Assembly: GCA_001938485.1 (NCBI GenBank)
Contig: MQRK01246661.1
Coordinates: 1 to 52,277 of the forward strand
Direction of reading: 5' to 3'
Length of the DNA stretch: 52,277 bases
Source of the DNA: Girardia tigrina
Taxonomy: Eukaryota
The translations under genes and the position numbers were made by a program. Below are positions 17,001 to 52,277 of this stretch, piece by piece. The stretch's first letter is position 1, and the number at the start of each line of letters is the position of its first letter. A model generated the notes under the pieces. It saw only the letters and a program-made list of their open reading frames with translations. It searched no databases and was not told the origin of the DNA.

Positions 17001-20000
17001 ACTTCGATGTTCAGAAGATCTCCAAGGACAACAATGACGAGTGGTATCCATGGTGGGTGAGATAAAAATAATTTATTCCCCACGACTCAAAGTCCACCCT
17101 TCGACGCCGAGTGTCGCGGCCACGCAAGTGATTCCCCTGCTCTGTTATTAATTGATTTAATTACGCATACCATCAAATAAAATTGGAAGAAGAGTCAAAG
17201 GTTAAGATGATATTCTCAAGAAAGAACAAACATACTGTTTCAAAAGAATGCTTTGGGAATTGCGGCTGCCCAAGTGAATTTTCAGGAGTTAATGGTGAAA
17301 TTTTTGGGAAATTTGAATTTGAAAGAAGTATTTGTATATTTGGATGATATTTTTATTTTTGATAAACATGAAAAAGAATATCTTCAAGGAGTATTTAATG
17401 TATTTCAAAAAAATTAAAGAATCTGGTTCAATAATAAAAATGTAAAGTTCTTGAAGAAAAGACAAGCTTTTTAGGATATTTCATATGTAAAGCAGGTATT
17501 GAAACAGATAAAACAAAGATTAAACAAAAAAAAAGTTAAACAAAAAACTCGTCATACATTAAATTTTTAAGGAGATTTTTTTGACTTGACAAATTACTAC
17601 ATAAAATGTACAGCTTTTCAAAATCAAAAAACAATAATGTCTAAAACCCCGATTTCTAAATATTTTACCAAATATTTTATGCTTTATTCGGACGCAGGTT
17701 TTGATACAATATTAGTAGTGTTAACACTGAAAGACAAACATGGAAGAGAAAGATATAAAATGAATCATTATATGAAAAGCATAAAATGAATAAACATAAA
17801 CTTGGCTATTAAATTACAAGGAAATAACTTCTTGCATTTTGTTATTTTAAACAGAATTTTAAAAAAATTTTGTATAGAAAAATATTTTTGTTATGAACAT
17901 ATCAGGTGTCAATATATACTGGCCATAATAGACCAGTTCAGTAAATATATTAACTTGAATACAGTTGCTAGTAAAGAGGAAAAAATAATATCTTTCTATT
18001 GTACAGATGAATCTGAAAATTTTTACTAACAAAAGAAATTCAAGTAGACAGAGAAAAAATTCAATCGGCTTTGTTCAAAGAAACAGCTAAACAGTCCAAA
18101 ATTGAGATACTCTATTCGAGTTCCTATCATCCATAATACAAATGGAATCGTAGAAAGACAGTTTTGATCTATCAGAAAAGCTTTAAATATTAAAATGAAA
18201 GATAAAGATCATAAAGATATGGCAGATGTTTTATCAGAAATTTAGCTTATGTTGAATAATACTGTACAAGATACGACAGGTGTGTCACTAACCAAAATAG
18301 TATTTGGACGAAAATTTAGACATCGGTGGAAAAAAAATTAAGAAGATGACGAAGAAAACATAGAGACAAGAAGAAAATTTTAAGTAAAAGACGGAGTAAG
18401 GAAGGAAAAATTTTCAAGCGATGATGACTGTTGCATGGGTCTGCAAGAGTGGTGAAATAATCATGAAAAAAAGTTAAGAGTTATAGCTTGAAAATGTCAG
18501 AATTTTTAAAGTCAAATATATCAAAGGAAATGTGAGAAGTGTTTTAATTTTTTATGTTTTTATGTTTGAGTGTCATGTACTGATTTGAATTGTGTCTCTT
18601 ACTCTGATGGCTTCTTATCATAAACTATTTTAATTAAATTTATAGTTTAATATTTATATTTATTTTAAATTTAAAAAGCGTTGTAAAATTTCTAGTGATT
18701 TGAATAATTTATTTTTAATTTTTAAATGAATGAAATATTTTTAAAAATAATTAAAATGAATTTTAATTTTTAATTATGAAATTTACGAGACATTATTTTT
18801 AATATTCAAATGTCATTATGATTCAGATAATTCTAAATTATTATATTATCCTATTAGAGTGATGTTTTTGAGTGACATATTTTATACGGATAATCTTAAG
18901 GATGATCCGAATTGAATTGCTAATAAAATTTATAATCAGTGAGTGCGTTCTCTTAATAAAATCTTAGACCATTTTGAACTTTTTAATGAAATGATTACTA
19001 AAATTGCAGTACAATGTAAAATATTTGTGACAAAAATTAGTTTGAATTTAATGCTAAAAAGATTTGAATAATGTAATTGTTATTTAAATAATTTCAATAG
19101 TAACAAAACAGGAAATTTTCTCATTCATAACCGGAACTTCAAATAATATGTCTCATTCACTGGAAATTATTCATTTAAATTCTACTGTTTACCTGCATTT
19201 TGAAAGTACAATAATTTTTATTTTAAAGCTTAAAATAATACAATTAGTAAAAAATGAATTAATCAACATTAAAAGATATTTCGGTTTTCAATATAAATTA
19301 TTTTGTCTTTGTGACTTACTTTTTAGTCAAGAAAATGGATGGCATTGTCTTCTAAACAGTATGGACAAGACAACTGAGTAAATGTGACTTTTTGTTAAAT
19401 ATTTTATTTAAATTACTTAAAGAATACAAAGCTTGACACAAATTAAAAAATATAATAATATTCCGTATCAGAATATTTTTTTATTATAAATATATTATTG
19501 TTATGGTTATAATTATGGGAATAACATAAATAAAATTAAAGGATTATTATGAATAAATTATCGTATAAGTAATAAAAGCAATATCAGAGATCATGTTCAT
19601 TTTTTTAATTACAATAAAGACGAAATTTGAATTTAGTATTGTCGAAAAAATTTTAAATATAAATTTTTTAAATAAAAATTATTGTACTTCCAATACCGTC
19701 CAGGGATTTCAAAATATCTGAACTAAGAATTTTTAAAAAGTCTTTTCGTTTGATCTTGTNNNNNNNNNNNNNNNNNNNNNNNNNNNNNNNNNNNNNNNNN
19801 NNNNNNNNNCCCGCCGTTTTTTGAAAAATTAAAATTTTATTTTTAACAAAAAAGTTACTAGAAATTAATCACAAATATAATCTCCGCCATTGTTCACGAC
19901 TTCTTCCCAACGTACAACGAGTTTTTCAATGCCTCTTTTGTAGAAATCGCCCGGTCTTGACTCGAAGAATTCAGCCAACGAAACTTGCAGTTCTCCATCA

Positions 20001-23000
20001 TTGTTGAACGAAACACCACGCAAAGCGTTAGAAAGTGAACGAAAAAGATGAAAATCAGATGGAGCAAAGTTAGGTGAATACGGAGGGTGCGGTAATACTT
20101 CCCAACCAAGCGTTTGAATGGCTTCTGTTGTCATTCTGGCAATATGAGGACGTGCATTGTCATGTTGCAAAATAATGCCATGTTGTCGATCCGGATGTTT
20201 TTGTCTTATAGCGGCGTTGAGTCTATGCAGCTGTTGAACATAAAGTTCCGATTTCACTGTTTGGTTTCGAGCAAGCAATTCATAATGAATAATCCCTTCC
20301 CAACCCCACCAAACACATAGCATTGTCTTTCGTGAATGAAGATCCTGTTTTGCTCGCGGAGTCGATTGTACTTCTCGGCTACACCATTCTTTGCGCTGTT
20401 TCATGTTGACGTACAGGCACCATTTTTCATCACCCGTTACAATTCGATAAAGAAATTGTTACTTATGAACGTGAGTAGAGCGATGACGGGCAAGCAAACT
20501 CGCCGAAATTGTGTATCGCTGGTTTTTGTTGTTTTCGGTCAAAAGATGTGGGACCAAAGCTCCCATTTGTTGAACTTTCCCCATTGATTTCAGGACGTTG
20601 ACGACAGTTTTTTGATCACAATCCATTTGTTCCGCCAATTCTCGAGTGGTTTGACGCGCGTCTTCATGCAAAAGTTTGTTCAAACGCTCTTCANNNNNNN
20701 NNNNNNNNNNNNNNNNNNNNNNNNNNNNNNNNNNNNNNNNNNNCTGTTTCATGTTGACGTACAGGCACCATTTTTCATCACCCGTTACAATTCGATAAAG
20801 AAATTGTTACTTATGAACGTGAGTAGAGCGATGACGGGCAAGCAAACTCGCCGAAATTGTGTGTCGCTGGTTTTTGTTGTTTTCGGTCAAAAGATGTGGG
20901 ACCAAAGCTCCCATTTGTTGAACTTTCCCCATTGATTTCAGGACGTTGACGACAGTTTTTTTATCACAATCCATTTGTTCCGCCAATTCTCGAGTGGTTT
21001 GACGCGCGTCTTCATGCAAAAGTTTGTTCAAACGCTCTTCATCGAATCCATTTGGTCGTCCTGAACGAGGTGCATCCTTGAGGTCAAAATTGCCAATTTT
21101 AAATTTTGCGAACCAATCACGAGCGGTTCTATTAGCTATAGCACCTTCTCCGTATACAGCACAAAGCTCTCGGGCAGCGTCTGCGGCTTTGGCGCCTCGA
21201 TTATACGCAAACAATAGATGGTGTTGGAAATGCTTATTTTTGTCGACTTGACACTCCATTTCAATGGTCTAAAAATCGACAAAAATTAATGTGAATAAAA
21301 AAACAAAATACACCATTTTTTAGAGCAAAACAATAGCATTCAAATAACATATATTATTACATCAAAAAATTTGATTTAAATATTAAATTGATTAAAAATT
21401 CAAAAAACGGCGGGAACTTATTCCTCAACCTAATATTAATATTCAACTAAATTATTGTTGCAATGAAATGAAATTTCAGTTACATCTAGGGTTAATAAAT
21501 GTTTATTGTCTTTATTCGATGACCAAAGAGAGCACAATATTGTATTTTTTCAAAAAGATTCAGACGAGGTGGACGATTATGATATTCGACTTCAACTCAT
21601 AATTTACGTTTTGAAAGACCGAGTCATTATCTATCAGATTTTAAACCGAACGATCTGTCTGAGAAACTGTGATCCGTATTTGACACCGATTCTCAGGCAT
21701 TTCTAAATCATAAAAGACAATCCAATTTGCTATAATCTTTATCGTCTTATCGATGAAGTCATTACAGAACTGAATTTTACACAAGGATAGTATGTATTCC
21801 GATCCGACATTAAACATTCTTGAATCGTTTAATCTCACGGATATATTAAAAAAATCAATGATCCAAATAATATCCAGAACGCGTCAGAAATTCAAAAAAA
21901 TTAAAATAAACTAAACAACATAATTGAAAGTTTATAAAAATCAAACAAATAATGATCGATTTTCCGAAGTAATGCAAGTCAATGAACAATATTAAGAAAA
22001 CAAATGTTACTTTTTATATTGTTATTAGTATAACAATTTTGATAGTCCTCTGGACGATCTTTGGCAACACTTTTTTACTTTTGCATCCTAATTGATTAAT
22101 GACTTAAATTTTAATATCTGAGTAAATGGAGATTGAATACTCATTTAAAATATTTACTAAAAATTTTATGGGTTAAAAATTAAAATAAATAATAAATATT
22201 TTAAAAATATTAATTCATTTTATTTATTTAAATTGTAAATAATAGTAATCGACTTATTTAAAATTTTAAAATAATTTTAAAATTAAAAATAAATTTAACC
22301 ATTACACATTTTAAATAACAAGAACAAATATATTAATCAGTCATCTAGGTAGGAGAAACACAATACCCAAATCAACATACAACATTCAAACACAAAACAT
22401 CAAACATTCCAAATATTCCACAAACAATTTTGTTGAAAACTCGGAAATTCAATTAATTAGGAATCCAGTCAGTGAAAACGATAATTCGGAATCGAAGAAG
22501 AAAGTCAACAAAATCAAAAGCATTCGATAATGAAAGTCAAGTAATCGATGAGAATAAATTTCAGGAAAAAATCAATGCAAATTTTGCATCGATTTTAAGT
22601 ACTTTTTGATTGGAGTCAATAGGTTATTATAATTGGTTATTACAATAATAAGTTGTGTAGGAAAGACAATTGATTGATGTGACCTTTAACAGAAATTATT
22701 TTCATGAAACAAATAAAATTTAACAAAAAAAGTTTTAGACAATATCGAATTTGTTATTTAATTTAAATATAAAGATTTGGCGTTTTTAAATTTTGTATAA
22801 TGATAATAACAATTTGAAACTAACTTCAGTTACTTCCGGTTGTTACAAAATCTTTGGGGCTAAAGCGAAAGTTTGTAAGAATCGATTGTTAACAATAACC
22901 GATAGTCACTCGACGGTAACTCGACAAGTCAAAGTTTTTTAATTTAAGCAAAAACCAGTACTTTTAAAAGGGGAGTTTTTAAGAATTATTTGATAAGTTT

Positions 23001-28200: not shown

Positions 28201-31200
28201 GCGCGTCTTAATTTATTACATTGATTGATTTAAACAATCTCAGGAGTTTTTAATTATTCAGGATCCTTTGATATATTATGATATTGATGTTGGATATTAG
28301 ATATTTTGATTATTTAAAATATTTAATATATGCTTTTTTGATAAATATTTTGTTTAAATATTATCAATTAAACAGTGTTTTGAAAATAAACTTTTCACGT
28401 GTTACAAGCTATCCGGGAATAATGAAGGATATAAAAATCGTTTTGGAGCTTTTGGAAAAATTCGATGGAAGCGTTAGCTTCGAGATCTGGCAGAAGAAAT
28501 TTGAAATGGTCATGAAAATCCAGAAGATTACCGATCCAGACCTGTATCTCCCTTTTTTACTATCGGGGGTTGCACTGAACATCTACATGGAATCGGACGA
28601 AAAGACGCAAAACAGCTGCGATCGGTTCTTCAAGATACTAAACAATTCGTTCGACCTGACTAGACGGTCCGCGTACAGTCAATTGATAAACTTACAGTAC
28701 CACGAGGGCGAGACTATCGATGAATATGCGTCTCAGGTGAAGATGCGATCTAATAAGGTCGACGATCTAACAAAAGCCGCCTTCATTACTGGACTGCCTT
28801 TCGAGCTGCAGCTGGATTTGGAACGGGTCGGCGACCAACCCTTGACCGAAATGATCGAGTATAGCCGTAGGTATTTGGGGATTAAAAAGGGTTTATTACA
28901 TGGTCCAATGACATTAATACAACACAGAAACAACAACAAAGATCCGGAGGTCAGGGAAAACTCGATAAACCCAGAGCAAATCTTCACAAAGGACCCTATG
29001 TTTATCGTGAGGGAGACACCGAATCGGAGGAAAGGAAGCATCATAAGGGTTCTCAGTGGCAATCGAATAAACATACAATATGCTAACAATGTCAGAAACC
29101 GGGTCATATAGTAAAATATTGTCAGTCGGGAAACGAACAGGGGAGTTTGTAGGCGCCGGCTTCACAGATCCAGGCGTTACTGACGATGATCGTCACCGTA
29201 AATGACAGGTCAGCCATAGCGTTGATTGATTCGGGTTGTTCGAAAATGGTCGTTATAAAAGGGTTAGTTAGTGATTGTATGTTGTTTTCTGACAGGGAAA
29301 GTATGGTTTTAGCGAATGGAAAGGGTGTTAGAGTGGGTTCGGGTAAAGTACGGCTGACTATAAATGGTAGGATTCGTAGGGTGAAATGTTCGGTCATGGA
29401 ACATTTTCCGTATGGTCGAGGGATCTTAATAGGTATGGATGTCATAGGTTAATTTGGCAGCGTGAGAATTAATAAGGGTGTTATTGAGTTCGGTGAAGAA
29501 GAAATTAAAGGGACAAATAGTAGCTTGAGTTTTACCGCATCGGATTAGCTTCTTGTTAGCATAAAAAAGCATAATTTTGAGATTAAGTGTAGGGAAAATT
29601 TGTTGATTAAATGGAATTGTAAAAGTGAGGCTCCTAGTTATCTTCCAAATCGACAGTCAGTTTTAAAAGACAATAAATTAAAAGATGTTGCAAAGTTGAA
29701 AATTTTAGACAGTTGGGTAGAAAAGGATTATCTAATCGAGTACAATGAGAAAGAAATGGGTAAATTGATAGGATCCATACCGATATTTGGAATATTGCAG
29801 GCTAATAAGTCCAAAATAAGACCCATTTTTGATTTAAGAAAATTAAACAATTACGTGGATGTTTACAGTGGTTCAGCGGATGTATGTTTAGAAAAGCTCT
29901 GCGATTCGCGACGTAGGGGTTCGACTTTTTCAATGCTTGATTTGTCAGAGACTTACATGCAGATTCATGTTCATAAGGAGATGTGGCGTTACCAATCTTG
30001 TATCATTAATAACAAGAAATATGCTTTAACTAGGATGGGTTTTGGTTTAAACATTGCACCAACTATAATGACNNNNNNNNNNNNNNNNNNNNNNNNNNNN
30101 NNNNNNNNNNNNNNNNNNNNNNGTCAGGTGGATTCTGAACTCTGACATCAGGATGCGTGAAAATACCGACTCTTATATTGATGATATTTATGTAAATAAA
30201 AGTTTCATTTCTGTTGAAGAAGTAGAAAAAGTGTTCAATAACTTCGGTCTCAAAGGTAAGAAACCGGAAAATCTGTCACAAGCCAACGAAGTTCGAGTTT
30301 TAGGAATGAAAGTCTTTAAGGACCAACATGTAGTGAGATGGAAGAGGGACAATCAGGTAAGGGATGAGCTGGATGTGGAATCAATTTCACGTCGTGAGTT
30401 ATATTCGTTATGCGGACAATTAGTTGGAACACATCAGGTAGCTAGTTGGCTACGTCCGTCATATTCATACCTTAAACGACTTAGTGAGGGAAGGTGGGAT
30501 GAAAAGATAGACGAAGAATTATTTGAGAAGATTAAATGGGTTGTAAAGACAGTGAGGGAGATTGATCCTTGCTGAAGTTTATGGGCCATTGATGACTGCA
30601 GGGAAGGTATTATATGGTGTGACGCAAGTTCAATAGACATTGGTTCAGCGTTAGAAGTCAAAGGGAACATAATCGAGGACGAATCATGGTTGAGAAAAAC
30701 TTATGATTCTAGGCATATTAATGTAGCAGAACTAGAAGCAGTTGTAAAGGGTTTAAACTTATGAAATGGGGTTTAAGGAGCGTGATAGTCAAATCGAATA
30801 ATAAGTCATTAGTTTTGTAGATAACCTCAACAACCTCAGATCGCGAAAAATTTAATACCAACACTTCATCTGAGCTTTGAATAAAACGACGACTGTCGAT
30901 GATCAAGGAGCTGTGTCAGGAGTATGAGATCGAGTTGAAGATCGAGTTTGTTAATAGCGAAGATAACAAGGCGGACGAGTTGACAAGAATCCCAAAACAA
31001 TTAAAAANAAGCAATTGTTTTTTAACGGTTACGGACGATCTACTCAACCTGCAGCAACTTCATGATAAGTGTCATTTAGGCCCAAACAGAATGCGATATC
31101 TATGTGCGAAGCAAGGAATAAGTGTATCAAACGTGAATATCAAGGATCTGATTTCATGATGTGAAAAATGTCAATCCATCGATCCGGCATCCGTAAAATG

Positions 31201-34200
31201 GAAAACCGGTAGGCTGAGCATCAATGAAAACTGGACAATACTTGCTGCGGATGTTACAAAGTACAATGAACAAAAATTTTTAAGTGTAATCAATTGAGGT
31301 CCTTCTCGCTTTGCGATATGGAAATTAATTAAGACTGAAGACGTCAGAATTCTCAAGTTTGTTCTGTGAACGCGGGTCTCCCAAGGAACTAATTATCGAT
31401 AATTATACCACACACAAGATCTCTGTAACACAAAGTTTTACTAGTTAATGATCCTACACGCATGATTTTTTCGGAATTTCAAGCTAAATTTAAATTTATA
31501 TTTCTTTTTATTTTTATTTATTTCTATGTGAAATGGCTAAGATTACGTTAGATGTTTCTGAAAACTGACAAAGATTATCGATAGACGTCACAAAGTTTCA
31601 CAATGACAAATACATAACAGTAGTGGATACTGGCTCATTGAGAATGGCAATATTACAAAAAATGCAAAACGAAATCTGTGAAAAGACACGTACTTTCTTA
31701 AATGGTTGTTAAAATTTTATTAAATTGAATAATTTAGAAAAATTATTAATTTAATTCTGCGAAATCTCAAAATTAAATTACAATAGTACTAAAGGTAAGA
31801 TACTCTTAGGGTATTGTTCTATAAATAAAAGCAAAAAACATAAATTTTATAACCTTGCTTCAAGAGGAACAATTTCACCGTCATCTGTTACTTGTTCCAA
31901 CTCAAACTTCTGAGCAGCATCTAATGATAAAGATATAATATCAGCAGCACCACTGGATCCCTAATTTTATAATAATAATTATTTTATGAAATTTAATTAG
32001 AACCTGACAGAGAACCACGGGGCATTTGTTTTCAACAATCGAATGACAAATTTGACTTAAAGTTAATACATCTCCTCCGACGACTAATCCACATATTGGA
32101 ACTCTAGTTTCAATAGAAGTTTCATTATTTAATGTTTCGGACTTCCAAAAAGAAATTGCGTGTTCAAATCTGGATCTAAACTGTACATCATTTTCCCTAG
32201 GGTCATTAGACGGAGGAACATCAAAAAGGAGAAAATGTGAATGATTAGTATCAAGGGATTTTTCTTTTTTATTTTCAATGACAATTCCTTCTTCATTATC
32301 TTCGGGTTCTTCTTCTGACTGATAAATTGCTGGATAAGTTCCCTAATAAATATAATTTTCATTACTGTCTATTATATATAAAACCAGTAGTTTCCAATCT
32401 ATGAAAACCACCTCTTTAAGAGGTGCATAATTGTTGACAAAATATTATTTTTTGTATTCACACAATACAAATCACATCGAAGTCAAAAAAGATAAATTGG
32501 AGTATATATTTAAGTTTATTTATACATAATAGGCTGTACTGACCACTTTTATAAAAAATTTCATTAAAAACTTTTTATAAAAAAACTTTGATAATAAAAA
32601 AACAATAAACGATTAAATTAAATTATAAAAATTGATTTAATTTAATTAAAAAAACATAATTTAAATCAATATTAGTAATTATAAATATCCATATATATTT
32701 AAAATATACTATATTAATTATTTACAAAAAAAATCAGTTGTTTTAACGGACGATTTTTATATACTTTTTTGAAATCGAATAAATTTTTAAAACGGGTGTC
32801 AATCTTTATCTTTAATAAAACTTTTATTTAATTTTTTTCTATAAAAATTATACTCCGGAATTATCCGTCGAGTTTTTATTCACCCTCAACATATGCTATA
32901 AAAGTTTTAACCAGTACAATAAATTACAATATCAAGTAAATATTTATGAAATGTAATATTTTTTGAAAGAGAGGCATAAATACGGAAAAGTTAAAAACTC
33001 TTTATTAAACTAATCCGTTAAAAAATCCAAAGTTTTTTGGAATGTTAATTGTATTATTTATTAATTTACGTAGCACTAGCATAATTTTACTACGGAAATC
33101 CTATTAGATTTCCATAATTTTCAAAATTCAACTGTCAGAAACAAACAATAGACTAAATGAAAAGTATTTTTAAACACATTAACAGTATAATTATTCAACA
33201 TATTTATTTTAAATATTCTTGTTTGTTAATAAATGTATTGTAACTAATCCGATTAAAAATCCAAAGTTTTTTGGAATGTTAATTGCATTATTTATTAATT
33301 TAAGTAGCACTAGCATAATTTTACTACGGAAATCCTATTAGATTTCCATAATTCCCAAAATTCAACTGTCAGAAACAAACAATAGACTAAATGAAAAATA
33401 TTTTAAAACACATTAATAGATTAATTATTTAAAAGATGTATTTTAAATATTCTTAATAACTCTGAAAATAGTTTAAATCAAATATAATTAAAAACATTAT
33501 ATTTTACCTGATATAAAGCATTTTCTAGAACTTCGTTTTTGGCTACTTTATGCCATGGTGCTACTCCTATTGCAATCATTTTATTTCCCCCATATGCATC
33601 AGTGTAATCTCTAACTGCTTCCCCTGCCAGCTTCATTATTCCCATATTCAAACCTTCTGTTACAATCCAGCAGCCTTAAATGTTTAATAATATCATATAC
33701 AAATTAAATAAAATTTCATTTTATTTTAAATTTTTTTATTTCATAAAAATACTTGACATATTTAATTATTACTACAGTTCCAAAAAATTCTTTAAAGATA
33801 CCTATAGTGTTAAAAACAGAAAAATCACTAAATTTTGTGTCAAACTCTGAATTCTATATAAATTCTATATTTGAAATTTAAAATAACGATAATTATTTTC
33901 GGATTTTGATAAGTAATTTTGATCGTAATTATGAAAGGACAATTATTGAAGCACTGTTAATAAAGTTTTAAAACATAGTTTAAACGTGAAAAGTGATTTG
34001 TACTATAATATTAGAGTATTTTGACGTAATATGGTCATCTTACTATATCAACAATCATGTCCGGAAATTTCTACGAAAACATTTAAACGAAGGGAATTTA
34101 TACGAAGGAAATTTATACGAATGGAAAATTATACGAATGAATATTTATACGGATGAAAATTTATACGAACGGAAATTTATACAAATAAAAATTTTTGAAT

Positions 34201-37500: not shown

Positions 37501-40500
37501 ACTGAAAATGATTTTTTCTGTGGTTTACACTCTCCAACAAACTCTAAGGACTTTGTGATAAATCAGAAGAAGCCATTTCATCAGAAAAAGGTATATGTTT
37601 TACAAGTAGTGCTTCAGTTCATTTCTTCTTTTCATGGCTATCACATTTTTATGTGATGCTCTTTGTTATGATAAAAATGATTACGAATTTAAAATCGTGC
37701 TTCATGACTTTTTATCGACTCATTATTCAACATTTATTATTCAGTTCTTTGGAAGATTGTAAATTAGTAATTTTCCCTTAACATCTGTGAACATTGTTTT
37801 GATTGTTACTTTATAGAAGAGGAATAATTTTAAGGTCAAATTTAATATTATAAGCAATCGCCTAATTATTTGTCTGTAAAGGTGTACATCTACAATCTAT
37901 ATGTGTGGAACCCATCTGTTAGAATCGAGTTCTAGAGGAAGGATTTGGGCGAACACGGTCCCATGAAGGTCCTTGTAATTAATTGGATCATCTAATTTGT
38001 TTGAATAATATAGTATTTTGTAAATCGAAAATATCATCTTATTTTACAAGCTATCGTGGCAATGAAAGCAATCAGTAATTTGAAGAAATTTGATGGTGGG
38101 GAGGACGTCGAACGTTGGATCGACAGATTCGAGTTTGCCATCGAGGTAGACGGGCTAATGGGAAAAGAAGTCTCATGCTTGGTCATGCAGTTGGACGGGC
38201 CGGCATACAACACTTGGAAGGGCTTATCGCTGGATCAACAGAGAAACACCAAGGAAATCAAAAGTGAGTTGCGCCGAGTGTTTGGTTTGTGGAAATTTGA
38301 CGCATAATATTTGAATCCCAAACAATTCTGTTATTAAATTTTTTATAATTTTACTCATCTTTGAATTTTATTCAAGTAACGTTATTAATTGAAATAATTT
38401 TTAATCTTTGTTCAAATAGAAAATTGACATTACATTAAAATTTCCTCAGAAACGTATTTAATTTAATTAATTGTCCTAAAACTACAAGTAATTTTAACGG
38501 GTATGGAACTGTCGGCCATTAATGCATTGAGATGCAAATTTCTTGTAGCTCGTAATAAAGTGTGTTTCTTTTTTTGGGACAATGTTTCTTGAAGAAAGTC
38601 CAAGGAAGTGGAACTCAGTTTTATAATCATGAAAATATTAGTTTGCTGCTTAGATTTATTTATACTTAGATTTATTTAGACAGTTCGAGTCAGGAGTTTT
38701 CAAGACTATGATCGATAAGTTAGGCGCCAAGCACGCGCACACGTCTGTGTACCACCCCCAGGCCAATGGGGCAATAGAGTGGTTCCACCGCACCTTTAAA
38801 CTTCCATCAAGATCTTCGCTGACAAGAACGCTCGTTGGGTGGACGCAGTTCCCTATGTTCTTTTGGGGTGGCGCAATACTCCTAACACCACCACAGACGC
38901 TTCACCAGCCCAAATTCTCTACGGAACATCAATCCGTTTTCTTTCAGAACTCACCGATTGTAACATCACCCCGTCCGACACCGACATGGCCGCCGCAAGA
39001 AAGCAGTTCGAAAACCTGCCCAAGGACAAGTTTTACCAGATGCCTAACCACGCAAAAACTTTCCTCCTAGAGAGTCAGTACACCACTAATTTCCTCTGGC
39101 TCAAAGACCACACATCTAGTAGGTTGAAACTACCCTACACCGGACCTAACAAAATCATTGAACTTTACCCCAGCAACGCGAAAATTCTCAAAGACGGCAA
39201 AACTATCACAGTCCACCTCAACAACACCAAGCCCGTCTTCGTTATGGACGACACCCCCATCCCGGGCAGCGATAACATGACCAGTTTATGACCGTCACCG
39301 ATAAACCGTTCATTACCACTACTCCAACTCCGTGCGAAGGAGCCAGCGGAAACACCGCAGCTAATACCAAGACACCGCACGCCGAAGACAACAGTAACCA
39401 AACATCATCTGATGACATTGTCGTTACTAACCAACGCAACTCTCGCATTAGACCTGCCAGATTCACCAGTTGGGCACCAATGCAAACCCCAACGGGCATC
39501 AACAGATTCCGCAGGGTCGAACAATAACCTTCTGCGTTTCCTTTCAGGCGTGTCTCGTGTCTTTCCTTCGGGGGAGTTGTGTTGTGTGCCACCACATTCT
39601 TGTTATTTTTATTGTTGTTTGGAGAGAAATTTATTTGTGTCTATTGTCTTTATAATTAATGTTTATCGCTTTCTCTCTCTCTATTTCTGTCATTATCTCT
39701 ATTACTGTCTCTATCTAATTGTCCTTTGTTGCAGTGTAAATACAGTTCACTCACAATGTGGAATGTGCNGTTTGAATTTGGTTTTTTTTATTAATTTCAG
39801 AAACGAATTTTTTCTTTGATTTGTAAATCGTAACCGATATCGGCAATTGTTCATTTTTTTCTGTTTAATTATTTTTTGAGTTGTCTGTGAATAAAAATAA
39901 TGCTAAAATAGCAATAGAAATTTAATGTCAGAAATTACAAAAAAATATTATCGTGGATAATCAAAAAACAATTACAAAAAAATTATAATTATGAACGTGG
40001 TTAGTGAATGTGTGAATTTGTTTTATTAAACTAAATATATATTTTCGATTTGAGTTTCTTATGAATTTTGTGTTTATAAATGAGTGATTTCCTTAAATGG
40101 GCGTTTGATCATTTCTGCAGAGGAATTAAATCATCACAACACGCAATGACGAAACAGTTTTCTCGATTCTATAATTGTTTGGGAGCCACGTACGAAATCA
40201 GCCGATTTTTCGAATCTCGTGTCCGTAGACCTGACGAATATACGACATTGGTGTTTCATTAATTAGTATTTAAACTAAGGATGTCGTGGATTGGTTTCAA
40301 AGGAATTATATACATGAAAGAATTAGAAGACATAAGCATGATGACACATGGCTTCGAAAACCACCTTTATTTTTAGAAACAGCATGGTCGATATAATATT
40401 CTTTTCAAAATGACATTTCACGTACTTAGAATGTCTTAGAAGCTTGATATCGAAGACGGGAATGCATTATTTAACGAGCATATGTTGGATTTTACAGAAT

Positions 40501-51522: not shown

Positions 51523-52277
51523 TAGACATGTACCGGTTTCACTTTTTCAAAACCGACCGTTTCCAGTACCGGTTTTGAAAAATAAAAAATTATCAAAAAA
51601 GAAAAACCAACATTGAAACGAAATAAAATTTTTATTTTGTATTTTTAACAGAAATACTAACTTCATCAATTAGATGAAAATTAAATTTCAAAAGAATTAA
51701 TCTCTCTGTATTCTCCGGTAATAGCCTTGATTTTTGGTCGTCCAATGTTTTTCCTGCAATGCTAAAAACTCTTTCAGAAGGAACACTTGTGAGCGGAGAC
51801 ACACGATAGGTACGAGCGATCTGTGATAGTCTTGGGAAACGATGATTATTGAAGCCCCACCAGTGAAGTAGATTTTCTTGTTTTGAAATAAGTCCTTCAG
51901 ATAAATAGATGTCCAATTCTGTTTTCAACGCTGATGCTGGAGAAAAAGACAACTTTGTCTGAGACAGCGATAAAATCTCGTCAAGACTTGACCAGGGGCT
52001 GAGATCACAATTTTGAGAAATGTTCATTAAAGTTTTTTCAGTTTCTAAATGCTCGACGATTGTAGTGATTTCATTTATATACCAACATGTAAAAGCTAGA
52101 AGGTTATCTTTAATTTGTGCAGATACAAACTCAGAAATGCAGCGATGTTTAAAACTGGGATTCAAAAGAGTGGCGATTGCTCAACATGGGTGAATCTCCA
52201 TGTTTCTCAACCGTTTTATGAGAGATTTCAGCAACTGTTCCTTCATTGTTTTTAATTCTGAATCAACTTCGGGCTTT
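51523..52277 (-). mobile_element. hAT (Ac/ZBED1-like) transposon 3' end with dimerisation domain
   Basis: ELDIYL, LHWW, FPRLSQIA, TSVPSERVFSIAG, RLLPEN. Terminus TAGACATGTACCGG with subterminal ACCG repeats. Confidence 0.9.

Follow-up and report, generated by a model that had tools for sequence, protein, structure and literature searches.

Compact LTR retrotransposons in Girardia tigrina and a possible primer taken from the 5' end of host tRNAs

The window analysed here, a stretch of 52,277 nucleotides of Girardia tigrina DNA (contig MQRK01246661.1), contains copies of two families of compact LTR retrotransposon, termed family 1 and family 2 (Table 1). The family 2 element in the window is a truncated copy. 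Its LTR ends with ...TTTTACA at 38048 and is followed directly by the 12-mer AGCTATCGTGGC (38049-38060), a single A and an ATG at 38062. This order had been noted in a preliminary description of the sequence and was found as described, with the ATG opening a gag frame. The frame encodes 81 residues of the gag N-terminus, and the cluster to which the family 2 element of the window belongs matches a gag profile with an E value of 3e-23. At about 38305 the copy is broken off; it is without pol, 3' LTR and visible target duplication.

Table 1. Features of the two families in the window
Feature	Position	Strand	Basis
Family 1 5' LTR, 119 bp	28288..28406	+	Paired LTRs and 5-bp duplication in L227
Family 1 PBS AGCTATCCGGGA, complementary to tRNA-Lys(UUU) nt 1-12 except for a changed last base in the window copy	28407..28418	+	
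Family 1 gag and pol (PR-RT-RNaseH-IN, decayed), with an approximate end	28422..31400	+	
Single-copy flank outside the family 2 element	37875..37973	.	Sole genome match is itself; without cover in 4 runs
Family 2 5' LTR, 75 bp, TGTAAT...TTTACA	37974..38048	+	Start and end common to other copies; paired LTRs; loose ends of run contigs
Family 2 PBS AGCTATCGTGGC, directly adjoining the LTR; antisense to nt 1-12 of tRNA-Phe(GAA)	38049..38060	+	
Family 2 gag, 5' part only	38062..38305	+	Homology to other copies stops at 38305

The LTR had initially been given a length of 174 bp, which has to be corrected to 75 bp. In a search of the genome (1.43 Gb) with positions 37875-38310, the best 40 of 1,095 candidates were scored. 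All 39 non-self matches among those listed start at query base 92-106, mostly at window position 37974, and end at query base 429-432; the repeat therefore starts at 37974, and the 99 bases upstream are single-copy. The stretch 37870-37985 has only itself as a match in the genome. Contigs from public runs have loose ends at 37974 in four of four runs and at 38048 in three of four, among the matches listed. The 3' edge of the LTR at TTTACA had been placed correctly: 3' LTR copies stop at the same base and are flanked by 5-bp duplications. The description had named a different position of the LTR end in other copies as an argument against its interpretation; the copies with paired LTRs all end at the same TTTTACA.

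Five other copies of family 2 (L018, L020, L221, L222 and L225) have both LTRs, each with this terminus. The 5-bp target duplications are exact in L018, L221 and L225 and agree in four of five bases in L020 and L222, and a purine tract lies immediately 5' of the 3' LTR in L018, L020 and L225. The full-length copies measure 3,882 and 3,904 bp and cover residues 10-903 of the protein P0004 in pieces. Three copies (L018, L020 and L222; 1,385, 1,404 and 2,629 bp) are internally deleted and have kept both LTRs and the target duplications. Families 1 and 2 encode a gag with a zinc knuckle, followed by PR-RT-(DUF7047)-RNaseH-IN, as revealed by Pfam searches with P0001 and P0004. Paired TG...CA LTRs, a polypurine tract and a target duplication are present across L018, L020, L221, L225, L227 and L094, and gag and pol include protease, RT, RNase H and a DDE integrase. 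The elements are thus LTR retrotransposons of about 3.9 kb with the order gag/PR-RT-RNaseH-IN.

The two families share 45 of 114 aligned RT residues, and their LTRs have only short AT-rich matches in common. The usual PBS of family 1, AGCTATCCGGGC, occurs at 13 of 28 junctions and differs from the usual form of family 2 at positions 8 and 9 only. A third family with the PBS AGCTAGCCGGGC (three of the four rows of one cluster) matches the host tRNA-Lys(CUU) genes. A genome search for TTACA-AGCTA followed by gag had been proposed at the outset. Of 24 sequence clusters with a junction of ACA and AGCTA-N4-GGC, at least 15 have a gag match (L147-L172, L193-L219); most were sampled as variant copies, since the search patterns excluded the usual forms. 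The genome therefore has many families of this lineage. A second pattern control gave 8 matches against 235 for the real pattern. At positions 1-117 of the window lies another copy of the family 1 LTR, 95% identical to 28292-28408; the primer site is not next to it, which makes it a 3' or solo LTR.

The site of family 2 in its usual form differs from the copy in the window by one base. The pattern TTTTACAAGCTATCGYGGC has 146 exact matches in the genome and the control pattern none; among the 100 matches listed, the variable base is C in 89 and T in 11. Position 38057, a T in the window, reads C in four of four public runs. The usual PBS of family 2 is AGCTATCGCGGC and the T of the window is a minority variant, which would most simply be a CpG-type transition. 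AGCTATCGCGGC is complementary in 12 of 12 positions to nt 1-12 of the 5' end of host tRNA-Phe(GAA), which bears out the earlier proposal that the 12-mer is antisense to a tRNA and ends exactly at tRNA position 1. Likewise, four intact host tRNA-Lys(UUU) genes match the complement of AGCTATCCGGGC of family 1 exactly at nt 1-12. The computed duplex energies are -23.5 kcal/mol for Lys, -22.7 for Phe and -20.8 for the variant in the window, which is fully paired by way of one G:U; in none of these three duplexes does the pairing continue past nt 12 into the LTR. The longest perfect tRNA complement in families 1 and 2 is that to nt 1-12, other runs reaching 8 nt, in a scan that took the whole of tRNA-Lys(UUU) but only nt 1-31 of tRNA-Phe.

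The host tRNA search suggested by the preliminary description found a tRNA-like sequence that starts with the complement of the family 2 site at four places in the genome. A tRNA beginning with GCC(A/G) had been predicted. All four matches to the degenerate pattern begin with GCCGCG and none with GCCACG, so that the G form stands and a primer starting with GCCACG was rejected. These four places hold the 5' part of tRNA-Phe; the 3' part occurs separately at three places. The 3' part has the Phe anticodon and ends at two of the three in TCGCGGCA, which would form an acceptor stem with GCCGCGA by 7/7 pairs. Since the parts are separate, a one-piece tRNA-Phe gene was not called by ARAGORN, which gave noise at a low threshold. 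The tRNA-Phe(GAA) pieces sit in a repeated cassette on contigs C181207, C56195, C241992 and C250656 (L031-L034, L067-L069), in which the 5' part ends near nt 28-31 and the 3' part lies elsewhere. On C181207 the two parts overlap by 16 nt and are about 1.8 kb apart; this could be the result of an insertion with target duplication or a decayed array.

For tRNA-Ile(UAU), the commonest host tRNA gene with a GCC start (12 of 28 matches), no matching site was found among 91 rows of junction variants, obtained with a pattern that exceeds its control weakly (91 vs 58). Among the family 1 matches listed, the changes at PBS position 6, counted at that position by itself, are about three to G (the Lys-CUU type, no more frequent than the other changes), five to C and two to A. 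In this count the variants look like ordinary decay and give no sign of a primer copied into the element.

The elements are not confined to this genome. A search with pol yielded 365 related proteins at E <= 1e-60. Those few with a named source come from a bryozoan and a crustacean (Watersipora and Petrolisthes); the viral contigs and phage records searched contained no relative. The domain order PR-RT-RNaseH-IN is that of Ty3/gypsy elements (Metaviridae). Profile and fold matches are distant (11-18% identity) and include foamy virus, HIV, Ty3 and caulimoviruses; the best integrase match is MMTV (E 7e-18), and the best match to Ty3 also lies in the integrase (E 4e-13). The elements are thus far from relatives of solved structure. 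Of 66 aligned proteins, 65-66 retain each of the catalytic acidic residues of RT, RNase H (D-E-D-D) and integrase. In the predicted model of P0004 (mean pLDDT 85), helices 410-464 run straight into a single RNase H fold at 481-608, and a tether is absent. DUF7047 (P0004 residues 409-465), which forms three helices after the RT palm in this model, is probably the RT thumb of the lineage and is a handy marker for it.

The site itself was examined in 77 metagenome loci, of which 60 have a visible gag start and 56 at least 70 nt upstream of it; the 21 loci in which that region is absent were dropped. Within 320 nt upstream of gag, CA followed by [A/C]GCTA-N4-GGC occurs in 48 of the 56 loci, compared with 3 of 11,200 shuffled upstream windows. 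Near forms account for another seven loci, two with the 12-mer after a changed LTR end and five with CA and AGCTA followed by an altered tail. No site was seen in L126, the contig of which begins about 140 nt upstream. At a gag identity of 70% the loci form 41 clusters from other organisms. The site is present in 40 of these, in 34 of them in the strict form; the arrangement is lineage-wide, as had been supposed. The motif search prescribed PBS positions 2-5 and 10-12, and position 13 is free; with the tail left free in the search, GGC begins at position 10 in 47 of 52 loci. In L089, L094, L103, L116 and L135 a second LTR sets the edge at CA or at most one base off, and in L109 and L118 the site stays at the LTR with the start of gag about 200-250 nt distant.

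Ten different 12-mers occur in the metagenome loci. Half of the full 12-mers (25 of 50) are identical to a tRNA 5' end documented in the source passages or found in the host (Drosophila Phe, Lys3, host Phe, host Lys-CUU). The other 25 we assign provisionally to tRNA types by resemblance. The commonest 12-mer (13 of 50) is identical to the last bases of a probe for the 5' part of Drosophila tRNA-Phe listed in a passage of PMC7038984, and another equals the start of human tRNA-Lys3 as given in part of PMC1797187. The 12-mer of L138 is one base off nt 1-12 of human elongator tRNA-Met as printed there (PMC1797187); it has C at position 1, and the pairing therefore reaches nt 12 in this case as well.

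A quick IQ-TREE phylogeny of RT and RNase H was calculated from 49 chosen rows, from which near-duplicates and loci without a called site were excluded. The PBS variants placed on this tree require five changes of tRNA label, and its well-supported branches force at least three for Phe and two for Lys. Family 2 lies in a clade with three Lys-type elements (support 97), apart from family 1, and the Met-type element, a case of one family, is sister to a Phe-type element (support 96). The tRNA labels of the metagenome rows were deduced from the 12-mers, the rows from the G. tigrina genome have long branches and the tree is arbitrarily rooted; it therefore does not fix the direction of each switch. 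Families appear to have switched among Phe, Lys and probably Met tRNAs, in agreement with the primer switching proposed at the outset. Families 1 and 2, described there as independent, occupy separate branches of one lineage and match different host tRNAs.

On the basis of these sequence comparisons, minus-strand synthesis is probably primed by a 12-base 5' fragment of a host tRNA. The RNA of the element would invade the tRNA at the 5' strand of its acceptor stem and at its D-stem. A primer must end beside the LTR edge, where an intact tRNA has no 3' end. As tRNA nt 13 onward is unpaired with the LTR end, a cut or trimming after nt 12 is needed; it would provide the 3'-OH, and synthesis would start at the last LTR base with no extra bases left at that end. 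The most likely agent of the cut is the RNase H of the element itself, which would act where the RNA-RNA duplex ends, in the manner of Tf1 self-priming but with the host RNA supplying the 5' end in trans. The conservation of the RNase H residues is expected in any LTR element and is not proof of a tRNA cut. The computed energy of the 12-bp duplex (-23 kcal/mol) has to be set against that of the folded, unmodified tRNA-Lys(UUU) (-29.6 kcal/mol); since the duplex competes with the folded tRNA, the reaction calls for either a chaperone or a fragment cut beforehand. The more far-reaching proposal, that a deep, widespread and apparently unnamed lineage has an RT/RNase H that grips the tRNA 5' end, measures 12 nucleotides, cuts in the D-stem and primes, is tentative, its chances being a little short of even.

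The main rival is a fragment made by the host. A host nuclease would cut the tRNA in the D-arm and the 5' fragment would anneal by its first 12 bases, its tail being trimmed without a cut by the element. Such a free piece spares the unfolding of a whole tRNA, and the tRNAs used have the GCC start and the TAGC[T/G] strand of the D-stem in common. On the other hand, 5' tRNA fragments are usually longer than 12 nt, and a fixed length of 12 that ends at tRNA position 1 (47 of 52 loci) suits a ruler in the enzyme of the element. According to the passage seen of PMC7472051, 5' tRNA fragments form an established class of RNA; this speaks for the host-made fragment, which we nevertheless regard as unlikely. 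Still less probable is a role of the 12-mer outside priming, in which it would bind a tRNA or fragment to control gag translation or packaging while another primer is used. In the 46 loci for which the distance was measured, 0-43 nt separate the site from the gag ATG, close enough for a bound RNA to affect translation. However, the site directly abuts the LTR, the place required of a primer end, and is kept there where gag lies 200-250 nt off. In loci with fixed LTR ends, moreover, the LTR CA is followed by AGCTA or CGCTA rather than TGG, and the canonical site is therefore absent from that place.

Self-priming of the Tf1 type, in which the 5' end of the element's own RNA would pair with the site and the likeness to tRNA would be incidental, was rejected and is very improbable. 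Its length would be similar to the 11 nt of Tf1 given in the part of PMC7175516 consulted, and in L134 a sequence 327 nt upstream of the site agrees with the complement in 11/12 bases. Yet of 54 loci, 51 contain nothing closer to the complement than a match of 8-9 of 12 and none a perfect one, the 75-bp LTR contains no such sequence, and the variants follow the host tRNA genes. Least of all do we believe in a conserved LTR-gag junction that resembles tRNA by chance, a reading we hold to be close to negligible. Only positions 6-9 vary, and the families are therefore not fully independent tests. Against chance stand three families in one genome, each with a host tRNA of its own that is matched precisely over nt 1-12, the shuffled windows (3 of 11,200) and the pattern controls (0 vs 146 and 8 vs 235); the preliminary description had judged chance unlikely as well. 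Priming by nt 1-12 of a host tRNA thus remains the preferred reading.

As far as is known, LTR elements start minus-strand synthesis from the tRNA 3' end, from a tRNA half produced by a cut in the anticodon arm or from the 5' end of their own RNA. Drosophila copia and yeast Ty5 (Ty1/copia) use a tRNA half, their sites being complementary to the anticodon arm of initiator tRNA-Met. The primer proposed here is likewise a 3'-truncated tRNA and not a CCA end, but it would consist of nt 1-12 of Phe, Lys or Met tRNAs, and the integrase follows RNase H. Compared with host tRNA-Lys(UUU), an anticodon-arm complement of the copia/Ty5 kind was found only as 8-nt runs deep in the element. Canonical Ty3/gypsy elements and retroviruses share with the present elements the TG...CA LTRs, the polypurine tract abutting the 3' LTR, the 5-bp duplication, gag followed by PR-RT-RNaseH-IN and the choice among several tRNAs; here, however, there is no TGG after the LTR, the opposite tRNA end is matched and no spacer separates LTR and site.

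The closest parallel is Tf1/Tf2 of Schizosaccharomyces pombe. According to the part of PMC7175516 consulted, the Tf1 RNase H cuts an RNA duplex between bases 11 and 12, and a short site adjoining the LTR pairs with an RNA 5' end; release by a cut at the duplex edge is proposed for the present elements. Unlike Tf1/Tf2, the 5' end would come from a host tRNA in trans, it comprises 12 rather than 11 nt, the element contains no complement and pol is not close to Ty3/Tf1-type proteins. Odin retrotransposons resemble the elements in being env-less animal LTR elements with weak retrovirus-like matches; in the passages seen of PMC9040795 they have a tether and a second RNase H, whereas the model predicts thumb helices followed by one RNase H here. 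In the parts consulted, neither a PBS nor a primer is mentioned in surveys of LTR elements from molluscs and annelids, in the work on Odin or in a network analysis (PMC6238403, PMC8556966, PMC9040795, PMC2774666), and the passages of PMC4402516, PMC7472051 and PMC3286476 deal with matters other than such a site. Among the literature hits listed for the 12-mers there was no retrotransposon paper by title, and the uses examined, in the excerpts seen, were tRNA probes or primers. No description of a priming site for a tRNA 5' end was found in the literature searched; an earlier mention in Repbase, GyDB, subscription journals or supplements, which lay beyond that search, is possible, with a chance of about one in three.

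If the proposal is true, nt 1-12 of a tRNA would form a further class of primer and possibly link tRNA priming with Tf1 self-priming. The chemistry of Tf1 would then be applied to a host RNA, the element would be a tRNA-cutting enzyme that makes 5' tRNA fragments, and 5', not 3', fragments would govern its copying. The 5' tRNA fragments would gain a concrete target beside the start codon of gag. Tools that seek tRNA 3' ends would label the elements as PBS-less, which may account for their having been overlooked. The sequence, length and cut site predicted for the primer are exact, so that the proposal is directly testable.

The window contains remnants of other elements. The region 38700-39760 holds the integrase-like 3' end of an element different from family 2, then a purine run and, at about 39580, a repeat that starts with TG; its longest frame has no Pfam match. 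Remnants of mariner-type and hAT transposases lie at 19868-20458 and at 51635-52180, both on the minus strand. On the minus strand at 2470-1395 there is a third gag with two zinc knuckles, preceded by a short TG...TTACA stretch and then TGGCGACC. The latter looks like a canonical primer site, the TG of which also completes the ATG of gag, and it forms a contrast within the window to the two sites of the tRNA 5'-end type.
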